Of a stretch of DNA of 37,380 nucleotides, positions 22,129-32,298 are shown piece after piece. The position numbers were made by a program, and so were the translations under genes. The notes below the pieces were generated by a model that was not told the DNA's origin, did no database searches, and was given only the letters and a program-made list of their open reading frames with translations. How positions within the stretch are numbered: position 1 is the first letter of the stretch; each line of letters begins with the position of its first letter. Source of the stretch: a virus (Duplodnaviria > Heunggongvirae > Uroviricota > Caudoviricetes); the IMG/VR virus record IMGVR_UViG_2718218398_000011; one strand, given 5' to 3'.

Positions 22129-23895
22129 ATGAACACCACACTGACACCCGCAGATCTCGATCCCCGTCGGCAGGCCATGCTGCTGTACTTTCAGGGATAC
22201 CGCGTCGCCCGCATTGCTGAAATGCTGGGCGAGAAAGTTGCAACCGTTCACAGCTGGAAAAAACGCGACAAGTGGGGTGACTATGGGCCGCTGGATCAGA
22301 TGCAGCTCACCACCGCCGCACGCTACTGCCAGCTCATTATGAAGGAGCACAAAGAAGGGAAAGATTTCAAAGAGATTGACCTGCTGGCGCGCCAGTCTGA
22401 GCGCCACGCGCGGATCGGCAAGTTTAACAATGGCGGCAACGAAGCTGACTTAAACCCTAACGTCGCCAACCGCAACAAAGGCCCGCGCCGTCAGCCGGAA
22501 AAGAATGTCTTCACCGATGAACAGATTGAGAAGCTGGAAGAAATCTTCCATTCCTCCATGTTCAACTACCAGCGCCACTGGTGGGAAGCCGGAAAAACCA
22601 ACCGCATCCGCAACCTGCTGAAGTCACGCCAGATCGGCGCGACCTTTTACTTTGCCCGTGAAGCCCTGATTGACGCCCTGCTTACCGGACGTAACCAGAT
22701 TTTCCTTTCCGCCAGTAAGGCACAGGCCCACGTCTTTAAGCAGTACATCATCGACTTCGCCAAAGAAGTGGATGTGGAACTGAAAGGCGATCCGATGGTG
22801 CTTCCTAACGGGGCCACGCTTTACTTCCTCGGCACCAATGCCCGCACGGCCCAGAGTTATCACGGCAACCTGTATCTGGATGAATATTTCTGGATACCGA
22901 AATTTCAGGAGCTACGCAAAGTGGCTTCCGGTATGGCTATTCACAAGAAATGGCGGCAGACCTATTTTTCCACACCATCCAGCCTGACCCACAGTGCTTA
23001 TCCGTTCTGGTCCGGTGCGCTGTTCAACCGTGGACGCAACAAAGCCGACAAGGTGGACATTGATCTGTCCCACAGCAATCTGGCCCCCGGCCTGCTGTGC
23101 GCTGACGGGCAATACCGCCAGATAGTCACCGTGGAAGATGCGGTGCGCGGTGGCTGTAACCTGTTCGACCTTGACCAGTTGCGCATGGAATACAGCCCGG
23201 ACGAATACCAGAACCTGCTGATGTGCGAGTTTGTGGACGATCTCGCGTCCGTGTTCCCGCTCAGCGAACTACAGGCGTGCATGGTGGACAGCTGGGAAGT
23301 CTGGACCGACTTTCATGCACTGGCGCTGCGCCCGTTTGGCTGGCGCGAAGTGTGGATCGGTTATGACCCGGCAAAAGGTACGCAGAACGGCGACAGCGCC
23401 GGATGCGTGGTGGTGGCACCGCCAGCCGTGCCGGGCGGTAAGTTCCGCATTCTTGAGCGTCACCAGTGGCGCGGGATGGACTTCCGCGCCCAGGCTGACG
23501 CCATCAAAAAACTGACTGAACAGTACAACGTGACATACATCGGTATCGACTCAACCGGCGTCGGTCACGGGGTTTACGAGAACGTGAAAGCGTTTTTTCC
23601 TGCCGTCCGGGAGTTTGTCTACAACCCCAACGTTAAAAATGCCCTGGTACTCAAGGCCTACGACATTATCAGTCACCGCCGTCTGGAGTTTGACGCCGGA
23701 CACACCGACATAGCGCAGTCATTTATGGCAATCCGTCGCGCCACCACCGCCAGCGGCAACCGCCCGACCTATGAAGCCAGCCGCAGCGAAGAAGCCAGCC
23801 ATGCCGATCTGGCGTGGGCAACAATGCACGCACTGTTTAACGAACCGCTGCAGGGCGAGTCCGCCAATACCAGCAATATTGTGGAGATTTTTTGA
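22129..23895 (+). CDS. P: terminase ATPase (large) subunit P
   Basis: 588 aa, P2 gpP-like. Confidence 0.9.
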   Translation: MNTTLTPADLDPRRQAMLLYFQGYRVARIAEMLGEKVATVHSWKKRDKWGDYGPLDQMQLTTAARYCQLIMKEHKEGKDFKEIDLLARQSERHARIGKFNNGGNEADLNPNVANRNKGPRRQPEKNVFTDEQIEKLEEIFHSSMFNYQRHWWEAGKTNRIRNLLKSRQIGATFYFAREALIDALLTGRNQIFLSASKAQAHVFKQYIIDFAKEVDVELKGDPMVLPNGATLYFLGTNARTAQSYHGNLYLDEYFWIPKFQELRKVASGMAIHKKWRQTYFSTPSSLTHSAYPFWSGALFNRGRNKADKVDIDLSHSNLAPGLLCADGQYRQIVTVEDAVRGGCNLFDLDQLRMEYSPDEYQNLLMCEFVDDLASVFPLSELQACMVDSWEVWTDFHALALRPFGWREVWIGYDPAKGTQNGDSAGCVVVAPPAVPGGKFRILERHQWRGMDFRAQADAIKKLTEQYNVTYIGIDSTGVGHGVYENVKAFFPAVREFVYNPNVKNALVLKAYDIISHRRLEFDAGHTDIAQSFMAIRRATTASGNRPTYEASRSEEASHADLAWATMHALFNEPLQGESANTSNIVEIF

Positions 23896-24923
23896 TGGGA
23901 AAGAGTAAGAAGAACCGCGCTGTGTCGACGAACCAGATTCAGCACAAAAGCCAGACTTCAGCCGAAGCATTCAGCTTTGGCGATCCCGTTCCTGTTCTGG
24001 ACCGCCGCGAACTGCTGGACTATGTAGAATGCGTACAGACAGATCGCTGGTATGAGCCGCCAGTGAGTTTTGACGGACTGGCGCGAACCTTCCGCGCTGC
24101 CGTGCATCACAGTTCACCAATTGCGGTGAAATGCAACATTCTGACCAGTACCTACATCCCTCACCCGCTTCTCAGCCAGCAGGCTTTTTCACGTTTTGTG
24201 CAGGACTATCTGGTATTTGGTAACGCTTACCTGGAGAAACGCACGAACCGGTTCGGTGAAGTTATCGCCCTTGAGCCTGCTCTGGCAAAATACACCCGAC
24301 GTGGGTTAGACCTGGATACCTACTGGTTTGTGCAATACGGTATGACAACCCAGCCGTATCAGTTCACGAAAGGCAGCATTTTTCATCTGATGGAGCCGGA
24401 CATCAACCAGGAGATCTACGGCCTGCCCGGCTATCTTTCTGCCATTCCATCCGCCCTGCTCAACGAGTCCGCCACGCTGTTCCGCCGTAAGTATTACATC
24501 AACGGCAGCCATGCAGGCTTCATCATGTACATGACCGACGCCGCGCAGAATCAGGAGGATGTGAACAACCTCCGCAACGCGATGAAAAGTGCCAAAGGTC
24601 CAGGCAACTTCCGCAACCTGTTTATGTACTCGCCTAACGGCAAAAAAGACGGGCTTCAGATCATCCCATTGTCAGAAGTCGCGGCGAAGGATGAATTTCT
24701 TAACATCAAGAACGTAAGTCGGGATGACATGATGGCGGCGCATCGTGTGCCGCCGCAGATGATGGGGATAATGCCAAACAATGTTGGGGGGTTTGGGGAT
24801 ATAGAAAAAGCCAGTTGCGTTTTTGTGCGAAATGAGTTAACTCCTTTACAAAAAAGACTTGTAGAAATTAATATTTGGCTAAAGAAAAAAATAATAGCCT
24901 TCAAAGATTATTCATTGAATTAG
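23892..24923 (+). CDS. Q: portal protein Q
   Basis: 343 aa, P2 gpQ-like; the last ~30 codons are AT-rich. Confidence 0.9.
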   Translation: MMGKSKKNRAVSTNQIQHKSQTSAEAFSFGDPVPVLDRRELLDYVECVQTDRWYEPPVSFDGLARTFRAAVHHSSPIAVKCNILTSTYIPHPLLSQQAFSRFVQDYLVFGNAYLEKRTNRFGEVIALEPALAKYTRRGLDLDTYWFVQYGMTTQPYQFTKGSIFHLMEPDINQEIYGLPGYLSAIPSALLNESATLFRRKYYINGSHAGFIMYMTDAAQNQEDVNNLRNAMKSAKGPGNFRNLFMYSPNGKKDGLQIIPLSEVAAKDEFLNIKNVSRDDMMAAHRVPPQMMGIMPNNVGGFGDIEKASCVFVRNELTPLQKRLVEINIWLKKKIIAFKDYSLN

Positions 24924-24957: not shown

Positions 24958-26610
24958 TTACAAATACCGTCTAACACGTATTTTATTAATGCTCGACTCA
25001 TTTCCAATTCTTATCAAAGCATTTCTCGCTTTTTCTCCGATGCGTTTCATTCTTTCTGAACCATTGCTATACCCACCAAACTTAAGAGCAGTAGCTATTA
25101 TTGAATCACCACCATCAAGAATGACTTTTTTAAATAAATCATAGTAGTCATCCTCTGAGGCAGCATCCAATATTTCCTCGTGCCTATCAGACCAACCATT
25201 CTGACTTGATAATTTTATTAGAACATCCTTTATAGAACCATCCAGATTTAAAGTAGTAGAATAATCTTGGATTTTTGACTTTAACTCAGCATCTTTTATA
25301 GGATGAACATTCATGTAAATAGATTGAACATATTCCTTAAGAGCATCATTGCCGTAATTAATAAATTTACTTATTAATTCACTTGCTTTAATATTTTCAC
25401 CTAAATCTCTATACAGTCCGACAACACTATCCAAGTCACTTGGAGTTACATACTCTATCCCACCAACCACCGCTTGATATAGATTATCAATAACCTGATT
25501 TCGGTTATCTTCAAATGAATTATAGAAAAGCTTCCATGCTTCAAACAGTGAACCTCGCTTACTATCACGGATAAGTTCATCATTCCTTAGACTTACTTGC
25601 CTTTGGAAATTGTTCATATCAATATATCCATGCCTTACCATGTCTATAAGGACTTCATCAAGTTCGTTTGTTTTTTTATAATCATATATAAGCAAAGTAT
25701 TAAGCCATTTTTTTTCTTTTCCATCCTCTTTTTCATCACGCATATAGATATTTCTCATATTTCTAATATACTCCAATGATGGTACATCTCCATCTGGAGT
25801 AAATGCGTAATGACTCCAACAATACAAAGTTAAGGAGTGTGCGACTTCATTTGCAATTTTTTCAAAATTAACGTTAATGCCAGGTAACAAGGCTAGCAAA
25901 AACCGCTCTATTTTTTTCAGTATCCTAATATTCTTAATACCCAGGGAAATGGAGTATTTGCTTAATAATTTATGAACATCAGAATTATTTTTATATGCTA
26001 TAACTGCACATTCTTCTGGAGTAGGATTATAGGTAATCTCTCTATCAATAACCTTTTCTTTATAAGTGGAGTAGTCATCCATACCACTTGTCCCGTTATT
26101 AAGTAAAAGAACCACCTTACAATTTTTTTGTTCTTTCAATAAAGAAACCAACCCTAAGACATCTTTCACTTCTAAATTTTTACCACGTCTTTCTAAGTCA
26201 TCTATGACTACAATAACATTAGTAATTGACATAAATGACATTGACTCAAGTGTCGTAGTGAAATTTTTCAAAAAAGGTGTATCTTTTAACACACGAGCGG
26301 TCTTTCTAGTGCAGGATTCAAGAAGCCCCTTTGCATTTTGTGTTGCTGTTTTTAAATTAGGTTTGTTTCCAATGAAATCTTTCGTAATTGTATTTTCAAA
26401 GATGGAGTATTTTAATGCGTCCAATGAATTAACACCAAAAAGAGAGACGTAACTATATCTATTAAATGCAATCTTATTTTTATTTTCCTTTAAGAAAGCA
26501 TTCCAAGTATAGGTTTTCCCAATCCCCCACTCACCCTGAATAGCCATTACCTCAGGTTCTGCAGATGAAATAAAGTCTGACAACTGTTCTTTAATATAGT
26601 CTAATGACAT
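24958..26610 (-). CDS. KAP-family P-loop NTPase (cargo; candidate anti-phage protein)
   Basis: Walker A GEWGIGKT and Walker B VVIDDLERR in KAP-type arrangement; start placed at MSLDYIKEQL, which has GGAGA six nt upstream (track ORF starts at 26640); strongly AT-rich. Confidence 0.7.
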   Translation of the reverse strand: MSLDYIKEQLSDFISSAEPEVMAIQGEWGIGKTYTWNAFLKENKNKIAFNRYSYVSLFGVNSLDALKYSIFENTITKDFIGNKPNLKTATQNAKGLLESCTRKTARVLKDTPFLKNFTTTLESMSFMSITNVIVVIDDLERRGKNLEVKDVLGLVSLLKEQKNCKVVLLLNNGTSGMDDYSTYKEKVIDREITYNPTPEECAVIAYKNNSDVHKLLSKYSISLGIKNIRILKKIERFLLALLPGINVNFEKIANEVAHSLTLYCWSHYAFTPDGDVPSLEYIRNMRNIYMRDEKEDGKEKKWLNTLLIYDYKKTNELDEVLIDMVRHGYIDMNNFQRQVSLRNDELIRDSKRGSLFEAWKLFYNSFEDNRNQVIDNLYQAVVGGIEYVTPSDLDSVVGLYRDLGENIKASELISKFINYGNDALKEYVQSIYMNVHPIKDAELKSKIQDYSTTLNLDGSIKDVLIKLSSQNGWSDRHEEILDAASEDDYYDLFKKVILDGGDSIIATALKFGGYSNGSERMKRIGEKARNALIRIGNESSINKIRVRRYL

Positions 26611-26670
26611 GTACATTCTCCGAGATAGATAGTCATCCATATTATAACCCGAGTACTATCAAAGTAATAA

Positions 26671-26696
26671 GCGCGCGCTCGTATCCCCGCCACGCC
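26671..26696 (-). other. candidate cos site (cohesive-end region)
   Basis: Minus strand reads GGCGTGGCGGGGATACGAG CGCGCGC, resembling the P2/186 cohesive end as I remember it (GGCG[A/T]GGCGGGGAAAGCA.. followed by GCGCGC); a G-rich block in an AT-rich island at the expected map position. Confidence 0.4.
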
Positions 26697-27039
26697 TGCC
26701 CGCTTTATGTAGTGGTTTTCATGCACCTGCACGACATAAGCAAAAGCACGCCAGTTCTGGCTGGCCTCAGCAAAAACGATCCTCTAACGATCATGCGATC
26801 TCATGCGTCATAGTCATGCACAGCCAAGGGAAGCGTAAATCCGTATCTGAATGACCGCTGAAAAGCTAATCATACGGGTTTACAAAGATGAAAGTCCGCT
26901 GTGAGCGAAAAGCGGATATTCCCATTGTTTTATCTTGATCTAGTAAAAACAATACCCCCTTTACAAACAAAAATAATGAGTTACTATTTTCAGCTCCTTT
27001 TAACCCAAAGGTTTATAATTAAAAAGGAATGGCATACCG

Positions 27040-27693
27040 ATGAGTAAATACAAACTTTTCGCACAGCTATCAAGATATTCACTTGAAGCGCAGATTGATG
27101 ATTTCGAAAAATATATCCTAGGAGCAGGCGGCCAAAACAGAGTTGACTTAGCGGAATTAAAAAAAGCATATGAAGATGAAAAAAAGAATGCTCCTGACGA
27201 TTATATTAATTACTTAGAAGACTATTATTCAGAGCAATATGATTTCTTAGTTAACATACAACCAAATATTTTTAATAAATCTGCTTTGGTATCTTTATAC
27301 TCATGCTTAGAGCACAACCTAAACGACTATTGCAATATATGTCAAAGGATTGTAAACACCAATATATCAGTAACCGATTTTAATGGTGATGGCATCCACA
27401 AAGCAAAAAGATATTTAACAAAATTAATGGATATAAACTTTGGCCTGTCACAAGAGTGGCAATTCATGACAGAGTTTAACAAAGTAAGGAATTGCATAGT
27501 TCATGCTAATGGAGACATTAAAAAAATGAGCACAGCTGTAGCCTTAAAAAATATCATTGATAAAACACCTACTCTTTCATTAAACAATGAAAATAATATA
27601 ATAATCTCCTTAAATTATTTAAAAGATACTATCACAAAAATTAGAAAACTCTTTCAATGGTTATATACACATCTGGATCAATCATCGAAATGA
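27040..27693 (+). CDS. hypothetical protein with HEPN-like RNxxxH motif (cargo; candidate abortive-infection RNase)
   Basis: 217 aa; EFNKVRNCIVHANG at residues about 146-158 fits the Rx4-6H HEPN signature; AAGGAA ribosome-binding site; AT-rich. Confidence 0.5.
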   Translation: MSKYKLFAQLSRYSLEAQIDDFEKYILGAGGQNRVDLAELKKAYEDEKKNAPDDYINYLEDYYSEQYDFLVNIQPNIFNKSALVSLYSCLEHNLNDYCNICQRIVNTNISVTDFNGDGIHKAKRYLTKLMDINFGLSQEWQFMTEFNKVRNCIVHANGDIKKMSTAVALKNIIDKTPTLSLNNENNIIISLNYLKDTITKIRKLFQWLYTHLDQSSK

Positions 27694-27793
27694 ATACGAT
27701 AACATCTCAGTTTGTTATTGGTCTATTTTTGAAAACAGCTATCGATGATATTAGTCTGTTCTTCGTCAATTAATATGCAATCCATTCATGACA

Positions 27794-27815
27794 CAGGGCT
27801 GCTGTTACAGCCCTG
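27794..27815. terminator. hairpin between the convergent HEPN-like and Abi_C-like genes
   Basis: cagggctg-ctgtta-cagccctg, a perfect 8-bp stem. Confidence 0.35.
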
Positions 27816-27942
27816 ACAACCTTAGACTTCAATCGATTCAGAGATCTCTAACGCATCATCACCCGTTGAACTCACAGCGATAAGTAGACGCTGGCGGCAA
27901 CACAGAAGTGTAGCGGGAATTTGAACCACATAATTTGGTTTG

Positions 27943-28809
27943 TTAGATGGCTTTGCTTCGATATTCAATTTCTAAAATCGCCTTTGTCATTGCCGCAATA
28001 GTTATAGCTTCTACCATAGTCAATTCAGGCTTGTTCAAGCTTCCGTGTCCAGCAGTAGGTAATTTGTTGCGTAAATCATAAATATCTTTAACAGCATCAA
28101 TAAGATTCTTAGGTAATTTTGACATTTTTTCGAACTGTTTAAAAAAACCACCCAATGACTCATTTGCCACATTCGGGTTTTGAGTGATTTCCTTAGCCAT
28201 AGTTTCTAAAATATTAGAGGCTGCGTGCAGTGCACCTGCCGGATCATTATTATCCAAGCAATTATTCATTCTATCTATTTGCTGAACGATATTTGGGTGC
28301 AATCTTTTTAAGTAATCACTAGCCAATTCTTCATTAAAATTTTTGACACTTTCAAAAACATCGCAATCTAAATAAAATTTAGGATTGACTGACATCCATG
28401 TATATTTCCAATCATTTTCTAAATTATCTTTTTCCGCAATACGCCTGCCAGTGTCCTGATCTATCTCATCAACATATTTACACATATAATCGGCGTAGTA
28501 GTGTAAATATCTAAATGATATTTCTGGGCAAAAATTACTAACTGATGCAAGGCCGCCATATTCTTTTGTAGTAACTGTAGGGACTTCTTCATCACATAAA
28601 GATGAGAAAGTGGTTCTTTCCCAAAATTCGCCCAACTCTTTTTCTTTCCTAGTTGCCATACCAGCTATCACATTGATGCTTGAGAGCAAAACTACACTCT
28701 GATAGTATCGAGGACATCTGTATGAACTAGCATATGGGCATATTGATGATGCTTTACGATTAATACGCTCTTTTTCCCACCAATTTTTATCAGGAATAAT
28801 TCTTTGCAT
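27943..28809 (-). CDS. hypothetical protein with Abi_C-like C-terminal domain (cargo; candidate abortive-infection protein)
   Basis: 288 aa; the C-terminal ~100 aa (ALHAASNILETMAKEI ... DLRNKLPTAGHGS ... ITIAAMTKAILE) resemble the Abi_C/HEPN-type domain as I recall it; AT-rich. Confidence 0.45.
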   Translation of the reverse strand: MQRIIPDKNWWEKERINRKASSICPYASSYRCPRYYQSVVLLSSINVIAGMATRKEKELGEFWERTTFSSLCDEEVPTVTTKEYGGLASVSNFCPEISFRYLHYYADYMCKYVDEIDQDTGRRIAEKDNLENDWKYTWMSVNPKFYLDCDVFESVKNFNEELASDYLKRLHPNIVQQIDRMNNCLDNNDPAGALHAASNILETMAKEITQNPNVANESLGGFFKQFEKMSKLPKNLIDAVKDIYDLRNKLPTAGHGSLNKPELTMVEAITIAAMTKAILEIEYRSKAI

Positions 28810-29297
28810 AATTTAGCTACTATCTCACGAGTGAATGAATGTTTAGCCTTCTGCACAGTTTATCAGTTCCGGCATGCCTACTGCTACCCCACTGATTCAA
28901 CTTCAAGTTATGAGTTAAAGCGATTCGGTTTCGCTAGATGACACACTAGTGTTAATTTATGGATAAAAATTTATCACTTAAAATTAACTAATGCCTGTTG
29001 CGACCAAAAGTGTGCTGGAATATTATTTTCGTCTGACCTATTATCAAGCTAATTATCCAAATTAGAGTTACTCTCATTCATCAGCAACAAATAAATACAC
29101 CTGTTCACTTTCTCAAAGTGTTCCTGTTTTATTTTTAAAGCAAACAACGCCGCCTATTCGTCCGAATGTACAACAAACATCAGGTTCTGACACAAAGTGG
29201 ACGATCACTTATCAAAATGACCGCCCACCTTACACCTCATTTCACTCGTTGCCCAAACTCCCCCCAACAGGATAAATCCTCTTGGGGGCAACGTTTC

Positions 29298-29883: not shown

Positions 29884-32298
29884 TTAATACAGGTTCCGCC
29901 ACTTATCATCTTCCCACAAACGCTGGTTCCGATAGAAGATACGCAAGCCTGCTCCTGACGGAATACTGCCGCCGCGAAGGAGTAAATCGACCTCTTTCTC
30001 GCTACCATCAAATCCTCTGGACTTCAGCTCATAGACGAGCTGCAGTCGCTGATGGTATGTAATTCGCTGTTTGTAGTCTTTACGCCGTTTCGGTTTAACC
30101 AGGCGTAACCTTGCTGCCAGGTCCCGGCGCTCTTTTTTGCTCATACTGTGCAGGTAATCGTGCAACTCCTTGTCATCCATGCGGGTAATGTCCGTTCTGG
30201 TATCCCCATCAGCTGATTTGTCTTTCCCTTGTTGGTACAAATTTTCAGCAAGGGGACAGTTATTGCCACGAGTCCAAGGGGCGCAAGCGCCCTGGTCGGC
30301 TGCCGCCTCCTGAACGTCAACGGCTTTACGGACCATTTTCCACTTCACTGCATGAGTGCAGATCTTGCCCTCTGCAATGGGTGACCAGATGCCATAAATA
30401 CGAATACCGTGATCGCCATAGGCGGTCGGCTCTTCGTTGATTTCATAAGCGGTTCTGATGAGGTGATATTTACGGGGAACCAGTACGCCGCCCTGCTTCA
30501 TGATGTAGGTGGCAAAGCAACCAGCATCAGCTGCAGCCAGAATGGCATCAAGGCGCGGGTTATCCAGTACCGGCGCACCTGCTTTTTTGTCACCCTGTTG
30601 CCTTGCCGCCTGACCAGCCAGCAATCGCAGTTCACGGTAAGCCTGACGCCCCGGAATGCCAAAGAAGCGGAATTGCTGAACACGATGCAGAGACGCCCAG
30701 GCATTAACGTATTCAGCGTTATCACGCAGAGATTTACCCGTTTCCTTGCTGATCTCGCCAGCCAGACCACGCCCGTCAATGTTCTTACTGATGTATTTCG
30801 CGATGTAGCTTGTTGGTGTACCTTTGCGCGGGTTTATCAGCTCAGACTTAAAGCGTGGTCCTGTGTTATTACCCAGCTCCTCGCGGTCTTCACGAATGGC
30901 AAACTTACGCAACAAAGCAGTAATGGCGCGGCGATCTTTTTTGCGCATAAAACACAACAGGTGCCAGTGAACTGTACCGTCATGATGCGGCTCAGCCACC
31001 CGCACGCCATACCAGCGCAATCCGGCTTTGTACATCGCCTTACGAAATGCAGCAAACATGCCGACCAGATAATCACTGCTTTGTCTTACCGTCGCATTTG
31101 TCCAGGTCGGGTTGGGCCTGCCGTTATTTAGCGTGGAATGGAAACGTGACGGACAGGTGATGGTGTAGAAAACGGCGCAGTCACCGCGCATTTCCGCGAT
31201 AAGCTCCAGACCTTTAACACATGCCATCATCTCATTGCGGCGATGCGCCGGGTTGCTACTACTGGCGTTTACCACGTCCTCCATATCCAGCGTGTCGCCG
31301 TCTTCGTTCACCAGTTCATGAGAACGGAAAAACTCCAGCGACTTACGGCGCTGCTCACGTTTATGCATCACGGCTTCATAGCTGACATAGGGAGATGCTT
31401 TTTTGCTGACCAGGCAAACAGCACGCAACTGCTCTTCCCGCCATTCGCAACGCATCTTCCATAATTTCCGATACCACCAGTCGGCGCACAACATACGCGC
31501 CAGCGAACCCGGAATGAGTTCATAGGGTACGGGTTTACGGCGGTTTCTTTTCCGGCGGAGTTGCTCAAACGCAGGAGGGATGACATCCAGACGCAGGGTT
31601 TCCGCCGCCACCCTTTCCCATGTCTTGCGGATTTCTTCTGGCTTAACGTCATCGGTGGCATACAAATCACCACAAGCTGCATCAAGGCACATGCTCATAT
31701 GTGCGGCAACAAGGGTAGACAGGCGCTTCACCTGATCCTGACTCATTTCAGGCAAGATCAGCAGGCCGTCCAGCCCTTCATGGCTTGCCATAAAACGAAA
31801 AGATGCAGATAGCTGGCTGTCGCGTACATGCTCTAGTCGTTCCAGACATGGTTTAATCGTCTCACGCAAATAGCGGGAATAAGCCTTTGGCCTGCCCAGG
31901 CTGCTGAAGTATTCAATACGTTGCATCAGCGGCTTGCTGATATGGGAAGGCTGGGCGTTAACGTCCGCCAGTATGACCATGTCCGGATTAAAACGCTGCT
32001 GCTCATGCACCAGCTTTGCCCGGCTAATGAGCTTATCCTGCTCCATTTCGCGCTGGACAGGATCACGGGATTCATTAAAGAAATAACGCTCCCAGACCTG
32101 ATCACTCAGTGCCTCGCGGCGCAGTTGTTCCTGCTTGTTATCGGCAGCGTACAGAGTGATCAGGTTTGAAAGCGCAGAAACCGGCGCAACTTCCGCCGGG
32201 TCCAGATAAGGGTTAATCGCCTTTTTCGGGCTGTTCCATGAGAATGCTGCGGCGGCCTCGTTAAAGCCGCTGCAGTTGTTCATATCAGCATGTCTCAT
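29884..32298 (-). CDS. A: replication initiation protein A (rolling-circle HUH endonuclease)
   Basis: 804 aa; HUH motif [11 protein letters not shown] and catalytic-Tyr motif [12 protein letters not shown], as in P2 gpA. Confidence 0.9.

Follow-up and report, generated by a model that had tools for sequence, protein, structure and literature searches.

A minus-strand gene at positions 27943-28809 of IMG/VR virus record IMGVR_UViG_2718218398_000011 encodes a 288-amino-acid (aa) protein that is probably an AbiJ-type toxin for abortive infection or defence, self-contained in one polypeptide, in which an N-terminal head domain would sense infection and a C-terminal HEPN domain would cut RNA. The window, by which we mean the whole 37,380-nucleotide stretch analysed, is a P2-like prophage of the Escherichia coli type, and the gene is cargo of its defence hotspot. 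The open reading frame (ORF), which a first-pass annotation had reported together with the motif DLRNKLPTAGHGS (residues 245-257), is real: it opens with ATG, ends with a stop codon at 27943-27945 and has a guanine-plus-cytosine (GC) content of 35%, against 50% for the window. Its 63 database homologues are full-length or nearly so, each carries the name 'hypothetical protein', and the start codon is correctly assigned because they align with the protein from residue 1. An AbiJ-like kind of system is already known, whereas the head domain is absent from every library searched. This domain is the more unusual part of the protein, which the first-pass annotation did not recognize.

Sequence motifs and the predicted structure identify the C-terminus as a HEPN domain of the AbiJ/Abi_C kind. 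In the AlphaFold model of the protein (mean predicted local distance difference test score, pLDDT, 84.3), residues 172-288 are entirely helical, and the structure matches of this part include HEPN toxins, LsoA, Csm6, AbiV and HepS, with ~105-118 residues aligned in each case. In the description of Anantharaman et al. (2013, PMC3710099), HEPN domains carry Ex3[KR] within helix 2, have an insert that separates helices 2 and 3, and show R-(polar)-x-H where helix 3 ends and runs into a loop; all three features fit the protein. Glu202 and Lys206 of the ETMAK segment lie within helix 190-209, a short helix (219-229) forms the insert, Arg247 and Asn248 close helix 234-249, and His255 is found in the loop that follows. 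Within the family, Arg247 and His255 are at least 90% conserved and Gly256 is invariant. The domain is predicted to be a metal-independent ribonuclease (RNase), the active site of which would comprise Arg247, Asn248 and His255, helped by Glu202.

The proposal that the C-terminus resembles Abi_C holds for the kind of domain, but formal membership in the Pfam family is not reached. The match to Abi_C (PF14355) aligns residues 227-279 with profile positions 26-78 of 83 at an E value of 0.0017 and 18.8 bits, where the gathering threshold is 24 bits. Abi_C is the top Pfam match, always below threshold, in 14 of the 39 family members examined (20.7 bits in P0001), and further weak matches in relatives are to the HEPN families DUF4145 and HEPN_Cthe2314. 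The best PADLOC match, PDC-S32, covers residues 201-268 only and is not significant (E 0.0099, 13.6 bits), and searches of PDB sequences with the family profile found nothing. The domain forms a divergent subfamily, which current models either fail to detect or rank beneath their thresholds.

A possible bridge from this subfamily to Abi_C is P0188 (517 aa), which is 31% identical to the 288-aa protein over residues 8-254 (BLASTP); after the same head domain it carries a bona fide Abi_C match (E 2e-14, 53.8 bits) with the motif ELRNVHGTGHG. A local hhalign comparison of the C-terminal profile with P0188 aligns helices 1 and 2 at 63% probability and places R-N...G-H-G in register, the latter at low probability. 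A 278-aa protein of Rhodococcus qingshengii plasmid pCP3 (L028 3524-4360) shares only the C-terminal domain with the 288-aa protein (39% identity over residues 171-282, E 1e-23, motif RNTEPTAGHGG); the N-terminal halves of the two proteins are unrelated, and Pfam assigns the plasmid protein to no family, Abi_C included. The gene for this plasmid protein adjoins an ArdC-like gene. Conversely, a Pseudomonas clade (P0057-P0061) keeps the head domain and has a different C-terminus. Both domains are independently shuffled modules.

The N-terminus, which the first-pass annotation had left unassigned as a possible sensor, stands as described: residues 1 to ~170 have no match in Pfam, NCBIfam, PADLOC or PHROGs, and the comparisons below support its status as a module of its own, potentially a sensor. 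A separate model of the head domain, built with 61 sequences, shows an α+β fold with very high confidence (pLDDT 95.3; predicted template modelling score, pTM, 0.87), and this model has no BFVD match at E ≤ 0.001. Conservation was counted over 150 head-domain representatives at ≤50% identity. The four cysteines are near-invariant (Cys24 in 149, Cys32 in 149, Cys94 in 150 and Cys149 in 148 of the 150), as are Trp63 (149), Glu74 (146), Glu96 (148), Asp117 (147) and His145 (148); Asp114 is found in 135. The motif NFCPE around Cys94 also served as the pattern with which related loci were retrieved. The family consensus has a proline directly after each of the four cysteines; the 288-aa protein has an aspartate after Cys149 (LDCDV). 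The pattern suggests that the cysteines probably surround a metal centre or an Fe-S site.

This domain is widespread. A profile search of 1.84 billion representative proteins returned 654 matches, 550 of them at E ≤ 1e-10. About five are full-length; the rest, in proteins of 154-819 aa, cover profile positions 1 to ~160 only. A second search yielded 1,171 clusters (90% identity) at E ≤ 1e-5. The best-scoring clusters are 'hypothetical proteins' of ~200 aa without a Pfam domain, from Desulfobacterota, Acidobacteria, Bacteroidota, Betaproteobacteria and others, and the domain is recorded for Proteobacteria and Verrucomicrobia as well. It is N-terminal in 122 of 140 representatives, beginning at about residue 1, and effectors of many kinds may follow. 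Among the 150 representatives, the fused domains are TIR_2 (19), TIR (11), CAP12/Pycsar TIR (5), DpnII-MboI endonuclease (3), PLD (2) and Abi_C (1), with SEFIR, Schlafen AlbA_2, protein kinase and GGDEF in single members; HNH fusions were confirmed as well. Transmembrane segments are predicted after the head domain in 36 of the 140. Where PADLOC models match such proteins (PDC-S66, PDC-S35, ThsB-like, bSEFIR), the matches cover the effector part only. PDC-S66 and PDC-S35 were considered as models of the head domain itself and rejected, their matches being confined to the TIR parts.

The commonest form of the head-domain protein is ~200 aa long and ends in a conserved tail of ~45 residues, for example EIKPGLAGISLNLKVLLTRLAKWWLSK (L011, L012, L014 and the top profile matches), that resembles an amphipathic helix. 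In other members (L016, L018, L019, P0063) the C-terminus is a clear hydrophobic transmembrane helix.

The location of the gene is in keeping with defence. The slot between gpA and gpQ beside cos is a defence hotspot of P2-like phages (Rousset et al. 2022, PMC9122126), and the 288-aa gene sits in this variable slot, between gene A and portal gene Q; E. coli prophages flanked in the same way hold other cargo there. Relatives occupy a range of mobile elements and defence neighbourhoods. E. coli EC261 and seven further genomes carry a 97%-identical 288-aa copy in a lambdoid prophage beside a zeta-toxin gene (L020 5001-5867); this allele has a premature stop at codon 115, within the Asp-Glu-Ile-Asp motif, and is annotated as two ORFs. 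The copy in E. coli NCTC9064 is flanked on one side by an ATP-dependent nuclease-helicase pair and on the other by a DUF4297-AAA ATPase pair. Relatives of 61% identity are found on P1-like IncY plasmids, and in a Serratia P2-like prophage one of 44% comes after the portal gene. A Vibrio vulnificus relative (65% identity, 286 aa) is the sole ORF of an integron cassette at 4188-5048 of L037 (1-7873), a chromosomal integron array with 13 attC-like repeats of ~125 bp spaced 470-1013 bp apart. Neighbours of the 42-45%-identical relatives match the PADLOC models Old/GajA (2.4e-82), SIR2, TIR, PDC-S15, DarT and PbeA. In a tblastn search of 50,697 phage records, the 288-aa protein had no match.

We propose a single-protein abortive-infection switch because the architecture is AbiJ-like and because SadR of Staphylococcus aureus, an Abi_C/HEPN protein with the motif RNEYGDAH, has been shown to be a defence RNase that depends on the R, N and H both to cleave RNA and to protect against phages and plasmids (PMC13590631). 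The model proposed for AbiJ in 2013 has the N-terminal part bind a viral component and hold the C-terminal HEPN toxin in check (PMC3710099). The 288-aa protein likewise has two domains in one polypeptide and no obligate partner gene. Its head domain (residues 1-165) would serve as the sensing and gating module, keeping the HEPN domain inactive in the uninfected cell. HEPN RNases normally act as dimers, and a signal that arises when another phage infects, whether a phage protein, a nucleic acid or a conserved ligand, might release or assemble the active site. Cleavage of RNA would then halt translation and growth, and the infecting phage would fail.

A more far-reaching reading, which we put forward tentatively as a possibility rather than an expectation, is that the head domain is an undescribed sensor with its own fold, present in many bacterial phyla, in which a four-cysteine metal or Fe-S centre and a strictly conserved pocket of acidic residues and histidine detect one conserved infection-associated signal, perhaps a small molecule, a nucleic-acid feature or a redox change, and thereby activate the effector to which the domain happens to be joined. 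The 288-aa gene would then represent, in enterobacterial prophages, a new and modular family of single-protein immune systems. On the main reading too, the strictly conserved polar residues point to recognition of a defined ligand, metal or nucleic-acid feature rather than of a variable phage protein.

Several observations weigh against an AbiJ-type sensor-toxin. The Pfam Abi_C score stays below 24 bits in every one of the 39 family members. The spacing from Arg247 to His255 (Rx7H) is one residue above the classical Rx4-6H, and at X = 6 it lies at the edge of the range of 2-6 reported for Abi_C proteins. The loop that holds His255 is the least confident part of the model (pLDDT <50 for residues 253-256), and how the two domains are oriented to each other is uncertain (pTM 0.57). 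The nonsense allele is fixed in eight E. coli genomes, which shows that the gene is dispensable. In 12 of the 140 head-domain representatives there is no effector, fewer than 30 residues following the domain. The near-invariant acidic, histidine and arginine residues fit an enzyme or a small-ligand pocket better than the recognition of variable phage proteins. Finally, His145 is lost (Phe or Tyr) in the whole enterobacterial and Vibrio clade, although the four cysteines and the acidic residues are retained; the 288-aa protein has a phenylalanine here (28363-28377), as the only such row among the 150.

Alternatively, the N-terminal domain might itself act as the enzyme or effector, for instance as a metal-dependent hydrolase that employs Glu74, Glu96, Asp114, Asp117 and His145, and the C-terminal modules would be accessory, targeting or regulatory. 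Glu74, Glu96, Asp117, His145 and the four cysteines, each present in 146-150 of the 150 representatives, are unusually strict for a sensor of variable phage proteins, little follows the domain in some forms (besides the 12 just mentioned, 55 of the 140 have a short tail of 30-99 residues), and some HEPN families are non-catalytic (PMC3710099). We nevertheless regard an N-terminal enzyme as unlikely: the C-terminal partners are classical toxic effectors (TIR, HNH, restriction endonuclease (REase), PLD, HEPN with intact R and H, and transmembrane segments), the clade of the 288-aa protein is well conserved despite the phenylalanine at a near-universal histidine, and the head-domain fold has no similarity to any solved hydrolase. 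The gene might instead be a cis-regulated toxin that stabilizes the mobile element by addiction, in the manner of a toxin-antitoxin system, and not an anti-phage system. HEPN proteins are common toxins of toxin-antitoxin systems, the gene is always found on mobile elements (P2-like, lambdoid and P1-like prophages, an integron, genomic islands), and the nonsense allele is consistent with the disarming of a toxic gene. However, there is no conserved adjacent antitoxin partner, and a search for a type III RNA antitoxin turned up neither an Rfam family nor a tandem or otherwise notable repeat; both the P2 hotspot and the genes nearby are of the defence type. Addiction has only a small chance of being the main role, and the two roles are not mutually exclusive. 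Very improbable, in our view, is that the gene belongs to no conflict system and is either an accessory protein for regulation or RNA processing in the prophage's own life cycle or a decaying remnant. This would fit the lack of a significant match to any known defence model, the uninformative names of all homologues and a promoter-like scan that was not above chance (13 sites against 11.2 expected). Yet the ORF is intact, with 60-88% identity across Enterobacterales, Vibrio and Shewanella, it is present in unrelated mobile elements and in defence islands outside phages, and its variable slot is not needed for P2 core functions.

The 217-aa HEPN-like gene that converges on the 288-aa gene across a 249-bp spacer, an arrangement the first-pass annotation had described correctly, raises the question of a two-gene system, for example a heterodimer, in which an adjacent second HEPN protein takes part. 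The 217-aa protein matches PADLOC RTasHEPN at 1.1e-5 and bears the UniRef name 'RiboL-PSP-HEPN domain-containing'; a PDB sequence search with it found nothing. Among 5,426 complete E. coli genomes the 288-aa gene is present in 17 and the 217-aa gene in eight, all of which are among those 17, and the two move as a block of ~99% identity. This co-occurrence, together with the dimeric action of HEPN RNases, speaks for partnership. Against it, nine of the 17 genomes have the 288-aa gene without the 217-aa gene (eight with the lambdoid prophage, and NCTC9064), and tblastn found no 217-aa protein at 17 genome loci encoding relatives of the 288-aa protein or of its head domain. The 217-aa protein has relatives (63-66% identity) that occur by themselves, at the end of a lambdoid prophage in Salmonella and in a Morganella P2-like prophage, where a 63%-identical one has the interval between the tail-fibre assembly and sheath genes to itself (L025/L026). 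This interval corresponds to the Z/fun slot of P2, so the 217-aa cargo family uses two different variable slots of P2-like prophages. The two genes do not form one operon, since they are convergent, and no neighbour family recurs across the 17 loci. Each near-identical block could reflect hitch-hiking. The 217-aa gene is accordingly rejected as an obligate partner and listed as independent cargo, and of the two options offered by the first-pass annotation it is the independent single-gene system that survives, the Vibrio relative being a single-ORF cassette.

Relatives of 87-88% identity in Salmonella and Serratia marcescens are preceded, at a gap of ~120 bp, by a co-directional 232-aa gene (L030 4181-4879, L033 4176-4874). 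Its product combines a zinc-ribbon (CxxC...CxxC) with DUF4145, a HEPN family; the two copies are 96.5% identical and have differing flanks. In Salmonella the pair lies in a tailed prophage, and in Serratia it lies beside OLD-TOPRIM ATPase and UvrD-like helicase genes. The recurrence of this gene in two genomic contexts would favour a two-gene system, but the 232-aa and 217-aa candidates are unrelated to each other, and a second HEPN gene next to the 288-aa family in two independent arrangements could be chance clustering of defence genes. Overall we consider a two-gene system quite improbable.

Within the window, the accessory island holds three cargo genes, for a 560-aa KAP P-loop nucleoside triphosphatase (NTPase), the 217-aa protein and the 288-aa protein, followed by a DinI-like gene (Table 1). 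This three-gene combination occurs in none of the 5,426 E. coli genomes, comparison with which places a mosaic breakpoint at ~26670, where the 217/288 block parts from the KAP gene. The KAP gene was therefore rejected as part of the same module. It matches Pfam KAP_NTPase (1.3e-8), the PADLOC candidate PDC-S49 (2e-25) and phrog_4740 (8e-145), and its different neighbours in other E. coli prophages mark it as a separate cargo module. 'Reve', from P4 satellites, is a single-gene defence system with a KAP P-loop (PMC13586616).

Around the breakpoint, the cos site is likely to lie near 26,675-26,700, the basis being only a G-rich string and the breakpoint itself. The string (~26670-26700, reverse complement GGCGTGGCGGGGATACGAG) resembles the presumed P2 cos sequence, which itself has no match in the window at ≤3 mismatches. 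Terminator-like sites number five against 1.7 expected, none of them within the convergent 217/288 spacer. This spacer contains a perfect 8-bp inverted repeat, CAGGGCTG ... CAGCCCTG, with a 6-nt loop and no T-run after it (27790-27815), which might act as a two-way terminator.

Table 1. Features of the 288-aa gene and its surroundings, in window coordinates.
Feature	Positions	Strand	Basis or remark
Portal gene Q	23892-24923		ORF list
Accessory island, low GC (~32-40%), between portal gene Q and the DinI-like/gpA genes	24958-29297		Composition; annotated E. coli prophages
KAP-type P-loop NTPase, 560 aa, directly after portal gene	24958-26640	minus	
217-aa HEPN-like gene, independent cargo	27040-27693	plus	Canonical RNxxxH: RNCIVH, residues 150-155
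288-aa gene, four-cysteine head domain and HEPN tail	27943-28809	minus	ORF list; homologues
C-terminal HEPN (AbiJ/Abi_C-like) domain, residues 172-288	27946-28296	minus	
R247-N248-x6-H255, predicted HEPN motif	28045-28071	minus	Translation; position as in PMC3710099
E202-T-M-A-K206, Ex3K in helix 2	28192-28206	minus	Translation; NILETMAKD kept in family
Head domain, residues 1-165, alpha+beta, 4 short strands and ~7 helices	28315-28809	minus	
LDC, residues 147-149, fourth conserved cysteine C149	28363-28371	minus	
DEID, residues 114-117, conserved acidic motif	28459-28470	minus	
NFCPE, residues 92-96, invariant C94 and E96	28522-28536	minus	
CPYASSYRCPRYY, residues 24-36, near-invariant C24, C32, R34	28702-28740	minus	
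Replication gene A (gpA)	29884-32298	minus	ORF list

If the sensor-toxin reading is true, it adds to the P2 hotspot an unannotated single-gene defence candidate that PADLOC 2.0 misses and Pfam detects only below threshold. The system is small and testable: it consists of one gene, with clear point-mutant controls and a natural nonsense allele in eight E. coli genomes. The head domain, with more than 1,100 clusters, is fused to almost every classical defence effector and has neither a family model nor a structural relative in the libraries searched. Identifying its ligand would explain the activation of many effector types together.

Among known systems, the closest in architecture is AbiJ (Abi-859) of Lactococcus lactis, like the 288-aa protein a single polypeptide of ~280 aa with a variable N-terminal domain and a C-terminal HEPN domain of AbiJ/Abi_C type (PMC3710099). 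Both have an R-polar-x(n)-H motif and both reside on mobile elements. N-terminal domains of the AbiJ family are also fused to REase, HKD/PLD, TIR and kinase domains, as the head domain is (PMC3710099). Unlike the AbiJ family, the C-terminal domain of the 288-aa protein scores below threshold for Pfam Abi_C and exceeds the Rx4-6H spacing by one, and neither the protein nor its 150 relatives match Pfam AbiJ_NTD3, NTD4 or NTD5; Pfam has no model for NTD1 or NTD2. The fusion list of AbiJ-NTD1 (HKD, kinase, REase, deoxyribosyltransferase-like; PMC3710099) overlaps that of the head domain, a comparison of partner lists only, and the head domain may be equal to AbiJ-NTD1, which was described only in a 2013 supplement.

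SadR, like the 288-aa protein, has a C-terminal Abi_C/HEPN domain with an R, N, H motif, and it is a single-gene system. It differs in its N-terminal part, and the likeness is known at the level of the Pfam family. The N-terminal classes listed in the SadR work (none, AbiJ-NTD3, NTD4, NTD5 and Sdh5; PMC13590631) do not include the four-cysteine head domain. Other HEPN systems, namely HEPN-MNT, RnlA/LsoA, AbiV and HepS of Gifsy-1, depend on a separate antitoxin protein or RNA or on direct sensing of a phage tail protein, whereas the regulatory part of the 288-aa protein is fused in cis and accompanied by no conserved partner gene or RNA.

The integron setting of the Vibrio relative has its counterpart in Taranis (Abi_C) and Esos (HEPN-like), single integron cassettes of Vibrio cholerae shown experimentally to be anti-phage (bioRxiv 10.1101/2024.07.02.601686); the comparison here is one of published descriptions. 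The N-terminus of Taranis is said to be AbiJ_NTD5-like, a family to which the 288-aa protein has no match. The head-domain family as a whole resembles the CARF-HEPN and SAVED-effector fusions, in which one conserved N-terminal domain is combined with interchangeable effectors (HEPN, TIR, nucleases, transmembrane segments). AbiJ N-terminal domains have themselves been likened to CARF (PMC3710099), and the strongly conserved polar residues of the head domain suggest a defined ligand pocket.

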